From: a virus
Lineage: Duplodnaviria; Heunggongvirae; Uroviricota; Caudoviricetes
Length of the DNA stretch: 64,000 bases
IMG/VR virus record: IMGVR_UViG_2687453522_000001
Direction: 5' to 3' (one strand)
A program made the translations under genes and the position numbers. This document shows, in pieces, positions 1-7,100 of this stretch; within the stretch, counting starts at the first letter, position 1; each line of letters starts with the position of its first letter. The notes below the pieces were generated by a model that was given only the letters and a program-made list of their open reading frames with translations, had not been told where the DNA came from and did not search any database.

Positions 1-7
1 GCTCTTT

Positions 8-24
8 ATTGCTCTAATTATTTG
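8..24 (+). promoter_or_regulatory. P1 C1-repressor operator-like site (ATTGCTCTAATTATTTG)
   Basis: Matches the recalled 17-bp C1 operator consensus ATTGCTCTAATAAATTT in 14/17 positions with the core ATTGCTCTAAT intact; lies just upstream of ORF 41..352. Confidence 0.4.
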
Positions 25-40
25 ATATTTATGGTTACAC

Positions 41-352
41 ATGCGGAAGGATTTCAAAATAGACGGAAAATATGTGGTGCTGTCTGTAAGCTCTCAAATT
101 CAGTCACCATCTGTCATTGTCACCGTAAAGTTGAGCGATAGGATGCCTGATATCGACTCGATATCTGTTGCGTTCCCCGTTAAAAGCATGCGGAGTGCTG
201 AACATTTTGTGATGAATGCAACGGAGGAGGAAGCACGGCGCGGGCTTACTAGAGTGATGGCGGAATTTGGCGAACTCCTGGGTAAGGTAAACAATTCCCT
301 TTCAATCAGTTCAGCAAGATCCAAAGCGTTAACAGCTTCCATGATGAAATAA
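41..352 (+). CDS. hypothetical small protein upstream of ref
   Basis: 103-aa ORF in the track; no recognisable motifs; true start may be an internal Met. Confidence 0.3.
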   Translation: MRKDFKIDGKYVVLSVSSQIQSPSVIVTVKLSDRMPDIDSISVAFPVKSMRSAEHFVMNATEEEARRGLTRVMAEFGELLGKVNNSLSISSARSKALTASMMK

Positions 353-482
353 AAAAGCCTGGCAAGGAGCCAGGCTACACAAAAGAGCGGGTTTGTATTC
401 CGCATCCAATCAATCAAGAAGGAGTATAGCACACAGGTACTGAAGTGAAAAAATGTGATTCGCGATAAACAAAATATCGACC

Positions 483-507
483 ATTGCTCTAATTGATTGC
501 TATAATT
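483..507 (+). promoter_or_regulatory. C1 operator-like site (ATTGCTCTAATTGATTG) overlapping a TATAAT -10 hexamer; probable C1-controlled ref promoter
   Basis: Operator core at 483-499 followed directly by gcTATAATtt at 502-507; ref is a known C1-repressed gene in P1. Confidence 0.5.
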
Positions 508-567
508 TAGCCGCAGTTTTTGTCAACTACGAAGACGTTGCCATTACTTAACTCCTTGACATCATTG

Positions 568-592
568 GCGGCCATCAGGCCGCCTTTTTTTT
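568..592 (+). terminator. hairpin plus T8 tract in the ref leader (attenuator-like)
   Basis: GGCGGCC-atca-GGCCGCC perfect 7-bp stem followed by TTTTTTTT, ending 5 nt before the ref ATG. Confidence 0.4.
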
Positions 593-597
593 GCCAT

Positions 598-1158
598 ATG
601 AAAACAATCGAACAAAAAATTGAACAGCACCGTAAGTGGCAGAAGGCAGCCAGAGAACGAGCGATCGCTCGGCAACGGGAGAAGTTGGCTGATCCGGCCT
701 GGCGAGAATCTCAATATCAGAAAATGCGGAATACTATCGACCGCCGTATCGCTAAACAGAAAGAGCGCCCACCAGCCAGCAAAACGCGGAAAAGCGCGGT
801 AAAGATAAAATCTCGTGGCTTGAAGGGGCGAACACCGACAGCGGAGGAACGGAGCATCGCCAATGCTCTTGGCGCTCTCCCCTGCATTGCCTGCTACATG
901 CATGGAGTAATATCTGAAGAGGTGTCTCTGCACCATATTTCCGGTCGTACCGCGCCTGGTTGTCACAAAAAGCAATTGCCACTTTGTAGATGGCACCACC
1001 AGCATGCAGCACCGGCTGAAGTAAGAGCAAAATACCCCTGGCTGGTCCCTGTTCATGCCGATGGTGTGGTTGGAGGCAAGAAAGAATTCACCCTGCTGAA
1101 CAAGTCAGAGATGGAGTTACTGGCTGACGCCTATGAGATGGCAAACATCATGCACTAA
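598..1158 (+). CDS. ref: Ref, HNH-family endonuclease (recombination enhancement function), 186 aa
   Basis: Starts MKTIEQKIEQHRKW; Cys/His HNH-like motifs (CIACYMHG, LHHISGR, CHKK, CRWHH); length from the internal ATG equals P1 Ref; C1 operator upstream. Confidence 0.7.
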   Translation: MKTIEQKIEQHRKWQKAARERAIARQREKLADPAWRESQYQKMRNTIDRRIAKQKERPPASKTRKSAVKIKSRGLKGRTPTAEERSIANALGALPCIACYMHGVISEEVSLHHISGRTAPGCHKKQLPLCRWHHQHAAPAEVRAKYPWLVPVHADGVVGGKKEFTLLNKSEMELLADAYEMANIMH

Positions 1159-1308
1159 TAAATATATTATTTTTAATAATAAATGATTGACAACTGACAA
1201 GTGACTTCAGTCAGAATCATCACATGCCCGGTACGGATGGATCCCTTTTCAAATATTCCATGGACGGCACAGTCTGAGTACCGGGCGCTACCTTCAGTTG
1301 TATTGCTA

Positions 1309-1337
1309 AGCCGCCGCTGGTGGCTTTTCTTTTTTGT
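1309..1337 (+). terminator. putative intrinsic terminator downstream of ref
   Basis: GCCGCC-gct-GGTGGC stem (one G-U pair) followed by TTTTCTTTTTT; contains a Chi octamer GCTGGTGG at 1315-1322. Confidence 0.3.
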
Positions 1338-1346
1338 AGGGGCGCT

Positions 1347-1988
1347 ATGGATAAGAAAATATGCGTTGTTTCGATGAGCGTCGGCAAACCGGCATCAATG
1401 ACTGCTGCATGGATCAATAACGAGCTGATAATGGCTGAGCGGACCAGCTACCCTGAACGCCGCCGCGATATGGAACTCCAGCTGCTGCGCGAATTGCGAG
1501 AAAAAGAGGAAAAGGGTTTTATCGTGCTGGTGGAAGAGGAAAACAGCTTTATTACTGGTCGAGTTGGCCAGCGTGTAAGGTTGCGCGATCCCTTCATGAA
1601 CGGCAGGCCGGTACTAATTGAGGCAATGCAGATTTATAAGGAGCTGGAACGCCAGAAAGCAATCAAGTTACCGCGCAAGGAATCCGGCAAATACATCCTC
1701 CACCAAAGCATCTTCGATTCCGAACACGATAAAAAAGGCGATGAATTTTTCAACATCAACTGGAGCGAAATAACGACAGAGCACGTTCTGACGTTGTTAT
1801 GCTGCTTCGCAACGGAATATAACAACGTTGCAAGCGCCGACTACATTAGGGCAATGGCAGGAGAAGTTGATGCCCGCCAGGAATCATCGTTACTAAGCCC
1901 TCTGATTAACATAATTCGCGGAACCCAAACACTGGCACAAAAACGGGTGCCTAAAGGGGAGTTAACTGGAAAAGGAAATTATCTATAA
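1347..1988 (+). CDS. hypothetical protein at the P1 mat position
   Basis: ORF (track 1320..1988) with an AGGGG Shine-Dalgarno before ATG 1347; backbone-like GC by eye; no diagnostic motifs. Confidence 0.45.
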   Translation: MDKKICVVSMSVGKPASMTAAWINNELIMAERTSYPERRRDMELQLLRELREKEEKGFIVLVEEENSFITGRVGQRVRLRDPFMNGRPVLIEAMQIYKELERQKAIKLPRKESGKYILHQSIFDSEHDKKGDEFFNINWSEITTEHVLTLLCCFATEYNNVASADYIRAMAGEVDARQESSLLSPLINIIRGTQTLAQKRVPKGELTGKGNYL

Positions 1989-2044
1989 ACGTCAATGCAT
2001 TAGGGTATACTTCTCCATAGAACTATAAGTAAATGGAGTAAGTA

Positions 2045-3352
2045 ATGAGCGAATATGTTGAGTTAGCATACGCTGCCGCTACAAGCAGGCTTTGTCTATT
2101 TACCGGGACTGGCTTTTCAAAGGCAGTCTCGAACGGTGAAGCTCCAACGTGGAAGGAACTATTAAAAAAAGTTTGCAGCAAAGTTCACAATGCCAAAAAG
2201 TTGGAAGACACGTTATTCCCTGATGATAAACCACCAGCACTGAGTCTTGAAGAAGCCGCACAAATACTATCTTTGAAGCTCAATATTGAGGGTAAGTCGA
2301 TTTATGATGAAATTGTTGACATCATATCTCCAATTCAACTTGGAGAAGACATATCAAATATAAAAGATTTTTTCCAAAAAAACTCATTCCGTGTCATTAC
2401 AACAAATTATGACAAGTTGGCTGAATGCTTGGTTGGAGATGAAAGTGTGCAGTCTATCACGCCCGGCCTGCCAATTCCAAAGTATCCATCCAAGGTGAAA
2501 ATATATCATGTTCATGGTTCTATTGATTCGCCAAAAAATATGATTGTCACTTCAGATGATTACTTCAGATTTATAAATTCCGATACTTATTTTTCACGAA
2601 AACTTAGTACGATGCTGCATGAAAATACAGTTGCGATATTAGGGTATTCTTTAAGCGACACAAATCTTAAAGCAATTATAAATGACTATAAAAAATTTTC
2701 GAAAAATAATGCCCTGTGCTCTAATATCTTTTTGATATCTCGCAACAAAGTAAGTCAAGATATGAAGGATTATTACTTCTATTGCTTTGGTATAAGGGTA
2801 ATTGACAATACAGAAATAGATTGTTTCTTTAGTCGATTAAGTTATAAGATTTCTCTCATTAAAGACATCATTGAAAGAGCGCGCGAAAATATCAGAAAAG
2901 TTGTTTCGGGGGCTTACACTTATAAAAATGAATATCTTAAATTAGAGGATTCATTTTATCAAATTATATCATCAATTATATCGGAAGGTTTAGATTGGAA
3001 TGATGATAAAGTCGTTTCTCTTTTCGAAAGGATAATAGAAAAAAAGAGAAAGTTAACAAGGAATAACGGAGCGTGGGAGCAATATGAACAGTTGGCAAAA
3101 TGGCTTATATATTTTGGAAGCATCATAGAGGTTAGCAATACTAAGTATGAAAAAACATATTTAGACGCAGTTGAATACTCGATGGGTCATATGAGTAAAG
3201 AAAGGAATTGGGGAGTTTCTTGGCATGCTTACAGAGCTTGGGAAACACGATGGCCTGCAATAATTGCCTCAAATAGATTAATGATAAAAAACCACATTGA
3301 AACATTAGGCACCTTGAAGGACGCCAACCTTATAGTTAAGAATATAGTGTAA
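2045..3352 (+). CDS. SIR2-like (sirtuin-fold, putative NAD+-hydrolysing) domain protein, 435 aa; candidate single-gene anti-phage defense
   Basis: N-terminal LFTGTGFSKA (Rossmann glycine loop), RVITTNYDKL (N121) and KIYHVHGSID (H157), spaced as in defense-associated SIR2 domains; alpha-helical C-terminal ~170 aa of unknown function; markedly AT-rich versus neighbours; GGAG Shine-Dalgarno. Confidence 0.8.
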   Translation: MSEYVELAYAAATSRLCLFTGTGFSKAVSNGEAPTWKELLKKVCSKVHNAKKLEDTLFPDDKPPALSLEEAAQILSLKLNIEGKSIYDEIVDIISPIQLGEDISNIKDFFQKNSFRVITTNYDKLAECLVGDESVQSITPGLPIPKYPSKVKIYHVHGSIDSPKNMIVTSDDYFRFINSDTYFSRKLSTMLHENTVAILGYSLSDTNLKAIINDYKKFSKNNALCSNIFLISRNKVSQDMKDYYFYCFGIRVIDNTEIDCFFSRLSYKISLIKDIIERARENIRKVVSGAYTYKNEYLKLEDSFYQIISSIISEGLDWNDDKVVSLFERIIEKKRKLTRNNGAWEQYEQLAKWLIYFGSIIEVSNTKYEKTYLDAVEYSMGHMSKERNWGVSWHAYRAWETRWPAIIASNRLMIKNHIETLGTLKDANLIVKNIV

Positions 3353-3372
3353 TTGTGGTCGATAAAAATTTA

Positions 3373-3396
3373 TCGGGCAGATAAAACTGCCCGATA
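3373..3396. terminator. bidirectional hairpin between the convergent SIR2-like gene and the lxc-like gene
   Basis: ATCGGGCAG-ataaaa-CTGCCCGAT perfect 9-bp inverted repeat with A/T-rich flanks. Confidence 0.45.
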
Positions 3397-3398
3397 AA

Positions 3399-3647
3399 TT
3401 AATCAGCATTCAGGAGCAATGCGTTATCTATGATGATCTGCTCCCATTCTTCGAATGCCCGGTCACGGACGCCCTGGGGAACGCTGTTAGTTTTGAAATC
3501 GACGACCGTACGCCATTTCCCGTCCGGACGGTACATGCGCAGAGCTTTACTTCCCCCTTCCCTGCGCACCTCAACGTTATGCTTATCAGCAAACTCTTGT
3601 AATGCTCGTAGCGTCCCATGCTTTACTGTGTAGTATCGCTTTTTCAA
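3399..3647 (-). CDS. lxc: Lxc (Bof)-like small protein, 82 aa
   Basis: Size and position (downstream of ulx and darB on the same strand) fit P1 lxc; named on synteny and size only. Confidence 0.4.
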   Translation of the reverse strand: MKKRYYTVKHGTLRALQEFADKHNVEVRREGGSKALRMYRPDGKWRTVVDFKTNSVPQGVRDRAFEEWEQIIIDNALLLNAD

Positions 3648-4084
3648 GTTTTCTCTCCAGCCTGTGCTAAGGCTTCAACTTCCAAATCGTAAGACTCAAA
3701 CTCATAGTCCTGGTCGTCAACCTCTTCAGGCACTGGCAGTAAATGCCAGGCTGAGTATATCTGACCATTATCAAAACGCTCCTGGCTGTAGAGCGTCGCA
3801 GCTATGAGCGTCAGCGCCGGGCGGTCATAACGGTAAATTTTGCGAACGTCACGGTCAACGAGACGACCGAAATTACCATAACCGCGCTCCAGTAATAATT
3901 TTTTAATTTCCGGCCAGTATGGACCATAGCTGCGGTACAGGCGGGGATTTTTCAGTAATCGCCCGCGTAGCCCTGACAGGAAGAAATCAACGTATTCGTC
4001 TTCTGTCTTTCCTAACAACGCTGTACGGAGTACCGCCTCAAGATATGTTTTATTCGGTTTTATTGTATCAGATAGTGTGGCCAT
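3644..4084 (-). CDS. ulx: Ulx-like protein, 146 aa
   Basis: Lies between darB and the lxc-like gene with a 4-nt overlap onto lxc; named on synteny only. Confidence 0.4.
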   Translation of the reverse strand: MATLSDTIKPNKTYLEAVLRTALLGKTEDEYVDFFLSGLRGRLLKNPRLYRSYGPYWPEIKKLLLERGYGNFGRLVDRDVRKIYRYDRPALTLIAATLYSQERFDNGQIYSAWHLLPVPEEVDDQDYEFESYDLEVEALAQAGEKT

Positions 4085-4117
4085 ATTATGCGACGCCCGG
4101 CGAACCGGGCGCTCCTG

Positions 4118-7100
4118 TTATGCGTATTGTTGGATGACGGCCAGAACGTCCGCCACGTTGTGTTTTGTCTCGATAATCCACCAGTTACCCGGGAAATCGC
4201 TGTTCTTCGCCTTCGCTGGCAGCCAGCGAGCGCCGAATTTCGCCTTGATTGCGTCTTTCGCACGGAAAAGAACGCCTTTCATGCCTGAGGCTTCCTGAAG
4301 CCCAAATACCTCGCCAGCGGCGAATTTTGGTGCGTACATCATCTTCAGGTCGGCGGTGGATACGCGATAATTCAGACCAAGAGACTGAGCTATGCTGGTG
4401 GCATCACCCTGTATTGATGATAACTCTTCTTGTTTCTCGTTTCTGGCGGCAATTTCTTCCTCCGTGATGTTGCCAAGGGCCAGGTTTATCCGATCAGCGT
4501 CGGCCTGTTTCTCTTCATCGGTGCGCCCGGCAAGAACCGTGTTAATTCTCTGCAATATCTCCACATGATTCTTACGCATGCTGAGCAATTCCGGCGTAAC
4601 TTCGTTAAGATCCACCAGCCCAAGGATGGCAAGGTCGGAAAACATTGATACCAGGTTGTAGGTCATGCGATAGCTGAGTTGGCCATAGGCTGATGGCAAC
4701 TGCACCGCATCCATTTGATAGGCATCCATAAATTTAGAGCCGTCGTTTACGACATCCGCAATTGCAGGTGTGATTTTCCCTGTGGTAGCGGCCTCCCTGA
4801 TTGCTGTTACCCACGATTGAGTCAGTGCGGCGACTGCATGAATCAGATTGGCTTCCCGTTCTGCTGCGATGCGCGCGCTTGCTGAGTCCATTGCCTGCTT
4901 GATCTCGGCTTTATTGCTGTAAATGCCAATGGTGCCAAACTGTGCTGTGGTGATCTCATAATCTGACGCCCGGAACTCATGGGTACCGAAAATGGCATTG
5001 GTGACCTCAAGTTCAGAATCCCCGTTACGAGTAGCCCCCTGGCTTGTTTTCTCCGGCATTTTTGCGATCGCATCCGCTATTTTCTCCTGAATTGCTTCAG
5101 GGGATAGCGTATCTCCGTATGACGCGATTACATCGCCATAATTGGAGCCAAACAATTCAACCAGGAATGTTTCTGCCGAACGGATCTGGCGGTTATTCCC
5201 TTCCGACATCATACCAAGCACCCATTTTGCAATTGACGACTTCAGCGCGCCGTCACGGCGATCCGGGTAAACCGCATGCTTCAGTGGGTCCGTATAGGTA
5301 CCAACAAAATCAATGCTATAGCCTGACTCTGTAGTCTGAACGCCGTATGAGTCAGTGATTTTGATCATGCCGCGCTGCTGGAAACGGTAGAAATCGTCAC
5401 AGGAAATGATGTCGTTAATCCCGGCGATGGAGACGCCACCACTGATTTTCTGCATAACAGCATCTTCATCGGGAGTTACATCCACCTGTTTATCCAGCGT
5501 CTTCACATCCCAGTTACCCGATTTGGTGCCTTTGAAGGTAAAGATGATCTCCACGTCTGCGCGCTGGCTGTCGAAGTCCAGCGACTTAATACGAACGATA
5601 TCACCGGCACAATCGTAGTATTGGCCTACACGCCATGAGCGATCGCCGATAACAAGGAACTCATTCGCATGGTTAACCAGATCAGGATCAACATCCAGAA
5701 TGCCTTTATTTATTGCATCCTCCACCAGTGGGCGCAGGCGTTTGATATCCGTCGCGGCCTTCTGAGTACGGTTCAATAATTTCTCATAGCGGGAGATGGC
5801 TTGAGAGATATTAGCCTTGCGCTGAATGGCGCTTTTCAACGACGCGCGATACTGTGCTAACAACGTACGGTCTGTGTGATGGACGCTACCCCAGCGGGCC
5901 TTCCAGTCTGCGTTATCAGCTGCTTTGGCCATTACCGCCTGTTTGAATTTAGCTACCTCGGCGGTGGTCTTTTCAAGTTCCGCTTTGCTTCGCTCTAATT
6001 CAGCGGTAAGTACCTCCACATCCTCGCCAGCTGCGTGCTGCGCCTTGATGTAGTTCTGAAGGTCGATAGTAGCCTGTTCTTTCTGGCGAGCGCGTTGCGC
6101 GGCTTTCGCCTTATCCATTTGAACCTGCATCATTGCCAGACGTTCGCCATCATCCTTAGCGGTATACATCTGCATTTCGATCATGTCATTGGCGTCGGCG
6201 TTCTCCATTTCTGACTTATCTGAACGGAGGATATCGGAGATCCAGCCTGCTTTACGCTTCAGCGTCTTCAGTCGGTATTCATCGAAAGACCCCTTGCCGC
6301 AGTAGTAGTGAACGCGAACGCTTGCACGGTTGGAGCCAACTCGTGCACCGCGACCGTTACGTTGTGCGATACTGGCTGGTGTCCACGGCAACGTCAGGTG
6401 GTGGATATCCGTCGTTCCTCGATGCAGGTTGATACCCACCTCTGCCTTTTTGTTGCAGATGATGATCGGAGTCCGGCCCTCCTGGAAGTCGGCAGCAATC
6501 TTTTCCAGCCCACCCAGCGACATTTCATTTTGCTGCGCGATATAGGCGTCATACAGAGCCATTTGCTCGTTGTATTTCGCTATCTGTGCATCTGTTGGTT
6601 CATCCGGTAGCTCTTTCGGCGGTTTAACCGCTTTCAGTTTCTTACCGGTTTTACCTGCCTCGGCAACCGTCTGAGCATTCAGGATCCCCACCTTTGAAGG
6701 TTCAAGGTTAAGAGCATTGCAGATAATGCGCTTGAGCTTCTGGTGTTGCGTTTTTTCATCGGTGAAGATGATTTGCTTACCTTCCGGGAAAAACTCCTTC
6801 AGCGTGGCAATCAGCTTCGCGTATTTGGGCGTAACGGGGTGAGTTACGGTCTGTTCGTCAATGCCAAACTTGGCCAGGCGCTTATTCACTTCCTGCTCAA
6901 ATGCTTCCGGTACCTGCAACTGAATAAACTCGCCCTTATCTATCAGGGAGTATTGCGATTGCTGCGTGATCGAATCATCACTGTCGTCGTCTTCGCTGGT
7001 GGCTTGTTTAGGCAAACTGTCCGCCAGCTGCTGCACCGCATCGGCGTACTCCGGCAGGAAACGATAGGTGATCCTGCGATAGTACAGGTCCATGTCAGTA

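Follow-up and report, generated by a model that had tools for sequence, protein, structure and literature searches.

The gene preceding a SIR2-like gene in a P1-like phage-plasmid is the backbone gene mat, most probably a neighbour and not a defence partner

Among the SIR2-domain NAD+-hydrolysing enzymes (NADases) of bacterial defence, DSR2 of Bacillus subtilis is a single polypeptide with an N-terminal SIR2 NADase domain and a helical C-terminal region; in such a DSR2-type single chain, the helical domain senses a phage component and releases the NADase. KomC (Kongming) and ThsA (Thoeris) act together with the partner genes KomA/B and ThsB, respectively, and react to nucleotide signals. In phage P1, the site between mat and lxc holds the EcoP1I res/mod locus, and res-mod is known as variable region 1 of P1-like phage-plasmids, with a low G+C content (PMC9603915). 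Here we describe the same site in a window of 64,000 nt (the whole stretch of DNA analysed, from the IMG/VR virus record IMGVR_UViG_2687453522_000001, to which all coordinates refer), the start of which falls in a P1-like phage-plasmid, with Punavirus matches over the first 4.2 kb. A 213-aa gene is followed there by a SIR2-like gene, and a preliminary description had asked whether the two are partners. We hold with high confidence that the former is the backbone gene mat and not a component of a defence system, and that the segment 1989-3398 is a single-gene SIR2 cargo, probably anti-phage, that would act alone. The genes concerned are as follows.

1347-1988, plus strand: mat, 213 aa from an ATG; an alternative GTG start at 1320 would give 222 aa
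2045-3352, plus strand: SIR2_2-domain gene, 435 aa, with an N-terminal SIR2 NADase domain of the defence type (residues ~1-257) and an all-helical C-terminal domain (~258-435)
3399-3647, minus strand: lxc (modulator of C1), a backbone gene and the right border of the variable site, 97-98% identical in nucleotide sequence to lxc of P1, RCS47, JL22 and 673R5

The 213-aa protein shares 94.8% amino acid identity with P1 Mat (P1_gp006, NC_005856) over all 213 residues (93% at the nucleotide level) and 98.1% with Mat of RCS47, which has no cargo downstream, and it matches the profile phrog_1837 with an E-value of 2.4e-112 (protein residues 1-213, profile positions 1-212). Because of this identity, the PHROG 1837 match and an upstream control region 98.5% identical to that of P1 (window 1150-1346 against P1 2629-2826, containing Omat, Pmat and LPmat), the gene is assigned to P1 mat, which encodes the maturation control protein and belongs to the backbone of P1-like phage-plasmids. 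Positions 8-1982 of the window align with classical P1 at 94% identity across c8, ref and mat, and the alignment continues from ~3399 on with lxc, ulx and darB, giving the order c8-ref-mat-(variable region)-lxc-ulx-darB; the two flanking blocks share 93-98% nucleotide identity with P1, RCS47, JL22 and 673R5. The preliminary description had favoured a native gene at the mat position, pointing to its backbone-like composition, and our data agree on both counts. Specifically, the G+C content of mat is 0.475 (0.537 at third codon positions, GC3), near that of ref (0.517), lxc (0.498) and darB (0.520) and unlike that of the SIR2 gene (0.349; GC3 0.326); in addition to identity and synteny, the comparison proposed at the time, with P1-like genomes that have no SIR2 gene, found mat in P1, P7, RCS47, JL22, 673R5 and SJ46. 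Nearly all of the 70 clusters that make up the Mat family come from Escherichia, Salmonella and Citrobacter contigs of ~90-100 kb, and the family is confined to P1-like elements; searches of Pfam, NCBIfam, PADLOC and PDB sequences with Mat, both as a single sequence and as a profile, gave no match. In the literature, mat has been handled as a phage gene, found essential with amber mutants and showing an efficiency of plating (EOP) of 0.28 under CRISPR interference (CRISPRi) (PMC10695390); it is unmentioned in 'New Insights into the Structure and Assembly of Bacteriophage P1'.

In alignments with the relatives, homology extends to the stop codon of mat and is picked up again at that of lxc, and the cargo cassette is therefore delimited to 1989-3398, with G+C falling at its border from ~0.5 to 0.29-0.38. 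The contents of this slot differ among the relatives. In P1, mat is followed by res/mod on the opposite strand, and likewise in P7, which has its own type III system; in RCS47, the mat-lxc gap of 39 nt is empty; JL22 has a single unrelated 316-aa gene (gp7) on the minus strand; and 673R5 and SJ46 have a RelA/SpoT-domain cassette. The latter (3583-4682 of the retrieved 673R5 stretch) consists of two genes on the mat strand, one for a protein with a RelA/SpoT domain and one for a hypothetical protein of 180 aa, and could be a system of the toxic small alarmone synthetase type. The EcoP1I locus of P1 is like the present cassette in its position, low G+C and defence-type cargo, but comprises ~6 kb of type III genes on the minus strand, as opposed to one 1.3-kb SIR2 gene on the plus strand. 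In PLSDB, mat was found on 693 plasmids and any SIR2 allele on at most 126; of these, 56 show a query coverage of 80% or more, and the remaining ~70 have a divergent allele, with matches confined to the leader and the first ~85 nt of the SIR2 gene. The P1-type res was present on 108 plasmids, the RelA/SpoT cassette on 52 and the empty RCS47-type junction on 31. SIR2 alleles in the slot form three groups, in the same orientation and with nucleotide identities of 100%, ~86% and ~65% (the most divergent ~59% in protein), a strong divergence between conserved flanks. No direct repeats, the signature of transposition, were found flanking the cassette, a result more in keeping with recombination in the conserved flanks than with transposition as the means of exchange. 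The lxc side of the cassette contains one further element.

3367-3400, no strand assigned: perfect inverted repeat (14-bp arms, 6-nt loop), between the SIR2 and lxc stop codons and overlapping the latter, followed by a U-run on the minus strand

This hairpin is a probable terminator, with RNA folding energies of -23.9 and -23.1 kcal/mol (z-scores -6.4 and -6.7), and the cargo types of the relatives each carry a different hairpin at the same lxc-side position.

Away from mat, the SIR2 gene has a wide distribution of its own. At E <= 1e-5, we found 678 relatives of the protein across Proteobacteria, full-length at ~434 aa and 52-62% identical, in Xenorhabdus, Pantoea, Klebsiella, Vibrio, Halomonas, Pseudoalteromonas, Pseudomonas, Rhizobium and other genera. 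In nine contexts inspected by hand and in 73 species-representative loci, neither tblastn nor a Mat profile hidden Markov model (HMM) detected a Mat homologue. When the open reading frames (ORFs) flanking SIR2 in the 73 loci were clustered, no family occurred in more than three loci, and only SIR2 itself was widely shared. Among the contexts inspected by hand, in Escherichia coli chromosomes (3616-6311 of the retrieved stretches) a 60%-identical homologue ends a prophage, directly after the integrase gene and adjoining response-regulator and cytochrome c maturation (ccm) genes, a typical position for prophage-end cargo. In Pantoea (3627-6308 of the retrieved stretches), the homologue lies on the same strand 144 nt downstream of a gene with HD and HD_assoc domains (dGTPase-like); the pair might be a small defence island, and it does not recur in other species. 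In Paracidovorax the homologue is preceded by a LysR gene, and in Pseudoalteromonas by a 207-aa gene without annotation; the product of the latter was considered as a Mat analogue and rejected, having no similarity to Mat (E 0.77). Within the P1-like locus, too, transposon insertions have disrupted one of the two genes and left the other intact. In CP057733, a TnAs3 insertion took the first 248 nt of mat together with its promoter, and the 435-aa SIR2 ORF is intact; in NZ_CP039843, mat is intact and a Tn3 element cuts the SIR2 cassette after 68 nt.

The SIR2 protein matches Pfam SIR2_2 (PF13289) with 84.4 bits (cut-off 24.5; E 1.1e-23). Residues G21-T22-G23, N121, D123, H155 and H157 are invariant in all 26 SIR2 sequences aligned, and the motifs containing them align with the TTNYD and VHG motifs of DSR2, so that the NAD-binding GxG and the catalytic Asn and His are kept. 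The fold of the structure model is closest to those of the defence NADases KomC, ThsA and Avs5. DSR2 was the best PDB sequence match (E 4.5e-10 over residues 14-282, the catalytic N121 and H157 being aligned) and has the same single-chain design, but is ~1005 aa long, compared with 435 aa here, and the C-terminal domains are unrelated in sequence. Membership in the DSR1 or DSR2 family was rejected, with NCBIfam scores of 26.2 bits for Dsr1 and 22.5 bits for Dsr2 against a cut-off of 1400 and a length of only 435 aa against ~1000-1300. Unlike KomC and ThsA, the protein has no SLOG/STALD domain and no partner either at this locus or in the 73 others; specifically, none of the partners of multi-gene SIR2 systems (ThsB/TIR, HerA, KomA/B or pAgo) was found at the locus, where the neighbours are mat and lxc. 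The best match in the defence libraries was PADLOC PDC-S25 (E 1.4e-26), a single-gene entry like the present gene, but the match is restricted to the SIR2 core (protein residues 100-259, profile positions 127-289 of 517). Judging from these relationships, the protein is most likely the product of a stand-alone gene that would abort infection by depleting NAD+. Literature searches returned no publication dealing with SIR2 at the mat-lxc site of P1 and no experimental data on the protein or its close homologues.

The question of how the SIR2 gene is expressed involves the following elements around mat and at the cassette border.

1149-1166, plus strand: C1 operator Omat, overlapping the ref stop codon (position transferred from the P1 annotation by alignment)
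1187-1192, plus strand: -35 element TTGACA of Pmat (transferred from the P1 annotation)
1199-1217, plus strand: late promoter LPmat (transferred from the P1 annotation)
1226-1346, plus strand: 5' leader of mat, with a terminator-like hairpin (8 pairs) at 1308-1326, then a T-run (to 1335) and a G-run at 1339-1342
1962-1989, plus strand: candidate sigma-70 promoter for the SIR2 gene, TTAACT (1962-1967), 16 nt and TATAAA (1984-1989), the -10 overlapping the mat stop codon
1989-2044, plus strand: 56-nt leader of the SIR2 cassette, with a Shine-Dalgarno (SD) sequence GGAG at 2035-2038 and a weak hairpin (2013-2018/2033-2038)

The layout given in the preliminary description, two co-directional genes 56 bp apart with a terminator-free gap, was borne out by the ORF coordinates and a terminator scan: exactly 56 nt lie between the mat TAA (1986-1988) and the SIR2 ATG at 2045, and a consensus scan found no terminator-like site on the plus strand between the genes. 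Since there is no terminator, co-transcription of mat and SIR2 from Pmat/LPmat is plausible. These promoters are C1-repressed or late, however, and would not express a defence gene in the lysogen, where the SIR2 gene would need a promoter of its own. The sequence TTAACT-16-TATAAA is a weak candidate for this role; it was passed over by the promoter scanner, having an A at position 6 of the -10, and was read by eye. Other SIR2 alleles have TTAACA-16-TATAAA, and P1 and RCS47 lack the -10.

The 56-nt leader (G+C 0.339; fold non-significant, z -0.62) is 98% identical (55/56) in plasmids in which the nucleotide identity of the SIR2 coding sequence has fallen to 86% and 65% (leader at 4001-4056 and 2501-2556 of the retrieved plasmid stretches). 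It is absent upstream of the non-P1 SIR2 homologues, suggesting that it is a feature of the P1 lineage and not part of a mobile SIR2 unit. The leader either is functionally constrained or marks a recombination boundary just inside the cassette; its conservation is as expected if SIR2 has long resided at the locus while its coding part diverged fast or was partly replaced, and does not require Mat. An Rfam search of window positions 1-4200 gave only sub-threshold chance matches.

We envisage that mat acts in phage particle or DNA maturation, and that the low-G+C cassette (leader, SIR2 gene and hairpin) became seated in the mat-lxc gap, the 'res-mod' variable region. By analogy with DSR2, the NAD+-hydrolysing N-terminal domain would stay inactive until an infecting phage is sensed by the C-terminal helical domain, and the infection would then be aborted through loss of NAD+; the narrow spacing and common strand of the two genes would reflect the seating of the cassette rather than a functional partnership, with read-through from the mat promoters possible during lytic growth. 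The preliminary description had left room for a two-gene defence system, with Mat as a sensor, regulator or antidote of the SIR2 effector. Although many SIR2 defence systems are multi-gene (Thoeris, SIR2-HerA and Kongming, structural neighbours among them), the SIR2 gene is solitary and without Mat in the 73 other species, and the Mat family is restricted to P1-like elements. In P1-like plasmids each SIR2 allele does follow mat on the same strand with a conserved leader and a terminator-free gap of 56 nt, but plasmids with mat outnumber those with any SIR2 allele ~5.5-fold, and mat stands without SIR2 in P1, P7 and RCS47; there is no SIR2-specific Mat variant, as the close identity of Mat from the cargo-less RCS47 illustrates; SIR2 is intact beside the truncated mat of CP057733; and the two genes differ in composition, PADLOC being silent on Mat. 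The occurrence of each gene without the other contradicts a two-gene system, and the evolutionary independence of mat and SIR2 makes one very unlikely. The RefSeq name of the SIR2 protein, 'SIR2 family NAD-dependent protein deacylase', would point to a deacylase of proteins or an ADP-ribosyltransferase with a role in the physiology of P1 or its host, but the nearest relatives of the protein in sequence and structure are the defence NADases DSR2, KomC, ThsA, Avs5 and SIR2-HerA, the slot holds restriction-modification and other accessory cassettes in relatives, the homologues on chromosomes occur in variable contexts, one of them the end of a prophage, and the strong divergence of alleles between conserved flanks is typical of immunity genes; we consider this role improbable.

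The source of SIR2 transcription allows a further reading, in which mat and SIR2 form a transcriptional unit without being partners, the promoterless SIR2 gene being read only from Pmat/LPmat and mainly during P1 lytic growth. The absence of a terminator and of a consensus-quality promoter in 1900-2045, the constant mat orientation of the cassette with its conserved leader, and the C1 operator and late promoter of mat all speak for this reading. Other cargoes, however, are on the opposite strand (res/mod of P1 and P7, gp7 of JL22), so the slot needs no mat-driven expression; the TTAACT/TTAACA-16-TATAAA candidate arises at the junction only in SIR2-bearing elements; and in CP057733 the transposon replaces the mat promoter region and leaves SIR2 intact. 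It would also be unusual for a defence gene of a prophage to be silent in the lysogen. We therefore regard expression by read-through alone as unlikely, although it has clearly better prospects than a two-gene system or a deacylase. Several points nevertheless weigh against a SIR2 cargo that acts alone in defence. The P1-borne SIR2 alleles all lie directly after mat, in the same orientation and with a 98% identical leader, and because of this arrangement SIR2 may depend to some extent on transcription of mat or on the 3' end of that gene; the scan of 1900-2045 found no consensus promoter for SIR2 on the plus strand; the NADase and defence roles of the SIR2 protein are drawn from homology; PDC-S25 is itself only a candidate defence class, matched here over the SIR2 core alone; and CP057733 is a single natural case, its intact ORF not being proof of a working SIR2.

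In defence surveys of P1-like phage-plasmids, mat should accordingly not be counted in a SIR2 system, and the SIR2 gene should be treated as a single-gene unit. The P1 res/mod slot takes alternative cargoes, comprising at least three diverged SIR2 allele groups, the RelA/SpoT cassette and type III restriction-modification, or is empty, and its sharp borders at the mat and lxc stop codons make it a natural site well suited to the comparison or exchange of defence cargo. To a specialist, the locus is an ordinary P1-like arrangement in an already known variable region and will not be surprising.

Judging from the correspondence of the control region, mat would be transcribed from a promoter under C1 repression and from a late one, both inherited from P1. 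The hairpin of the mat leader is placed between LPmat and the mat start codon, and the leader RNA (1226-1360) folds with -46.8 kcal/mol (z -2.2), with the SD sequence and AUG paired; the hairpin could be an attenuator or a translational control element. The position between ref and the variable region and the operator/late-promoter region are shared with P1 mat, but the GenBank record of P1 Mat has 250 aa from an upstream ATG, whereas only the 213-aa form can be read here and in JL22. The difference arises from the G-run at 1339-1342, which has four G in this window and in JL22 and five in P1; the extra G in P1 joins the upstream ATG (window 1237) in frame, while here that frame ends at 1377. 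Since MDKKIC is the N-terminus of 15/15 aligned Mat homologues, down to 40% identity, we take ATG 1347 as the true start and the 213-aa form as real, and the 37 extra N-terminal residues in the P1 record probably result from a start annotated too far upstream. In phage vB_EcoM-673R5 (ON470615.2; retrieved stretch 2841-3457), a 1-nt deletion splits mat into two ORFs, which either means that the gene is dispensable or stems from an error in sequencing; dispensability would fit the mild effect of CRISPRi (EOP 0.28; PMC10695390).

The last ~45 residues of Mat (window 1840-1988) are mosaic and hypervariable among otherwise near-identical Mat proteins, with P202, L206, T207 and G208 invariant within this variable C-terminus, and recombination tracts from the adjacent variable slot seem to extend into the 3' end of mat. 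Mat has been known genetically for decades without an assigned biochemical function. Its structure model (predicted local distance difference test score 65, moderately confident) resembles the nuclease domains of large terminases (TerL), which have an RNase H-like fold. Mat differs from TerL in lacking sequence similarity (7-11% identity), an ATPase domain and the acidic residue usual at the end of strand 1; in the Mat alignment, D2, E64, D81, D124, E145 and H146 are invariant and no acidic residue is present at that position (residues 9-10). A nuclease domain shared between Mat and PacB was considered and rejected, the two having no sequence similarity; PacB itself gave weak AAA and RNase H-like Pfam signals and nothing else. 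From the model, we tentatively suggest, as a conjecture that may well not hold, that Mat is a stand-alone RNase H-like (pseudo-)nuclease in DNA processing or packaging beside the PacA/PacB terminase and that the 3' end of mat is the left recombination anchor for cassette exchange, the latter because the variable slot begins exactly at the mat stop codon and the last ~45 codons are mosaic.

Upstream of mat, the program-made ORF for ref starts at TTG 520 (520-1158, 212 aa), while P1 Ref has 186 aa from an ATG equivalent to window position 598; the 212-aa ORF is probably not a real product.

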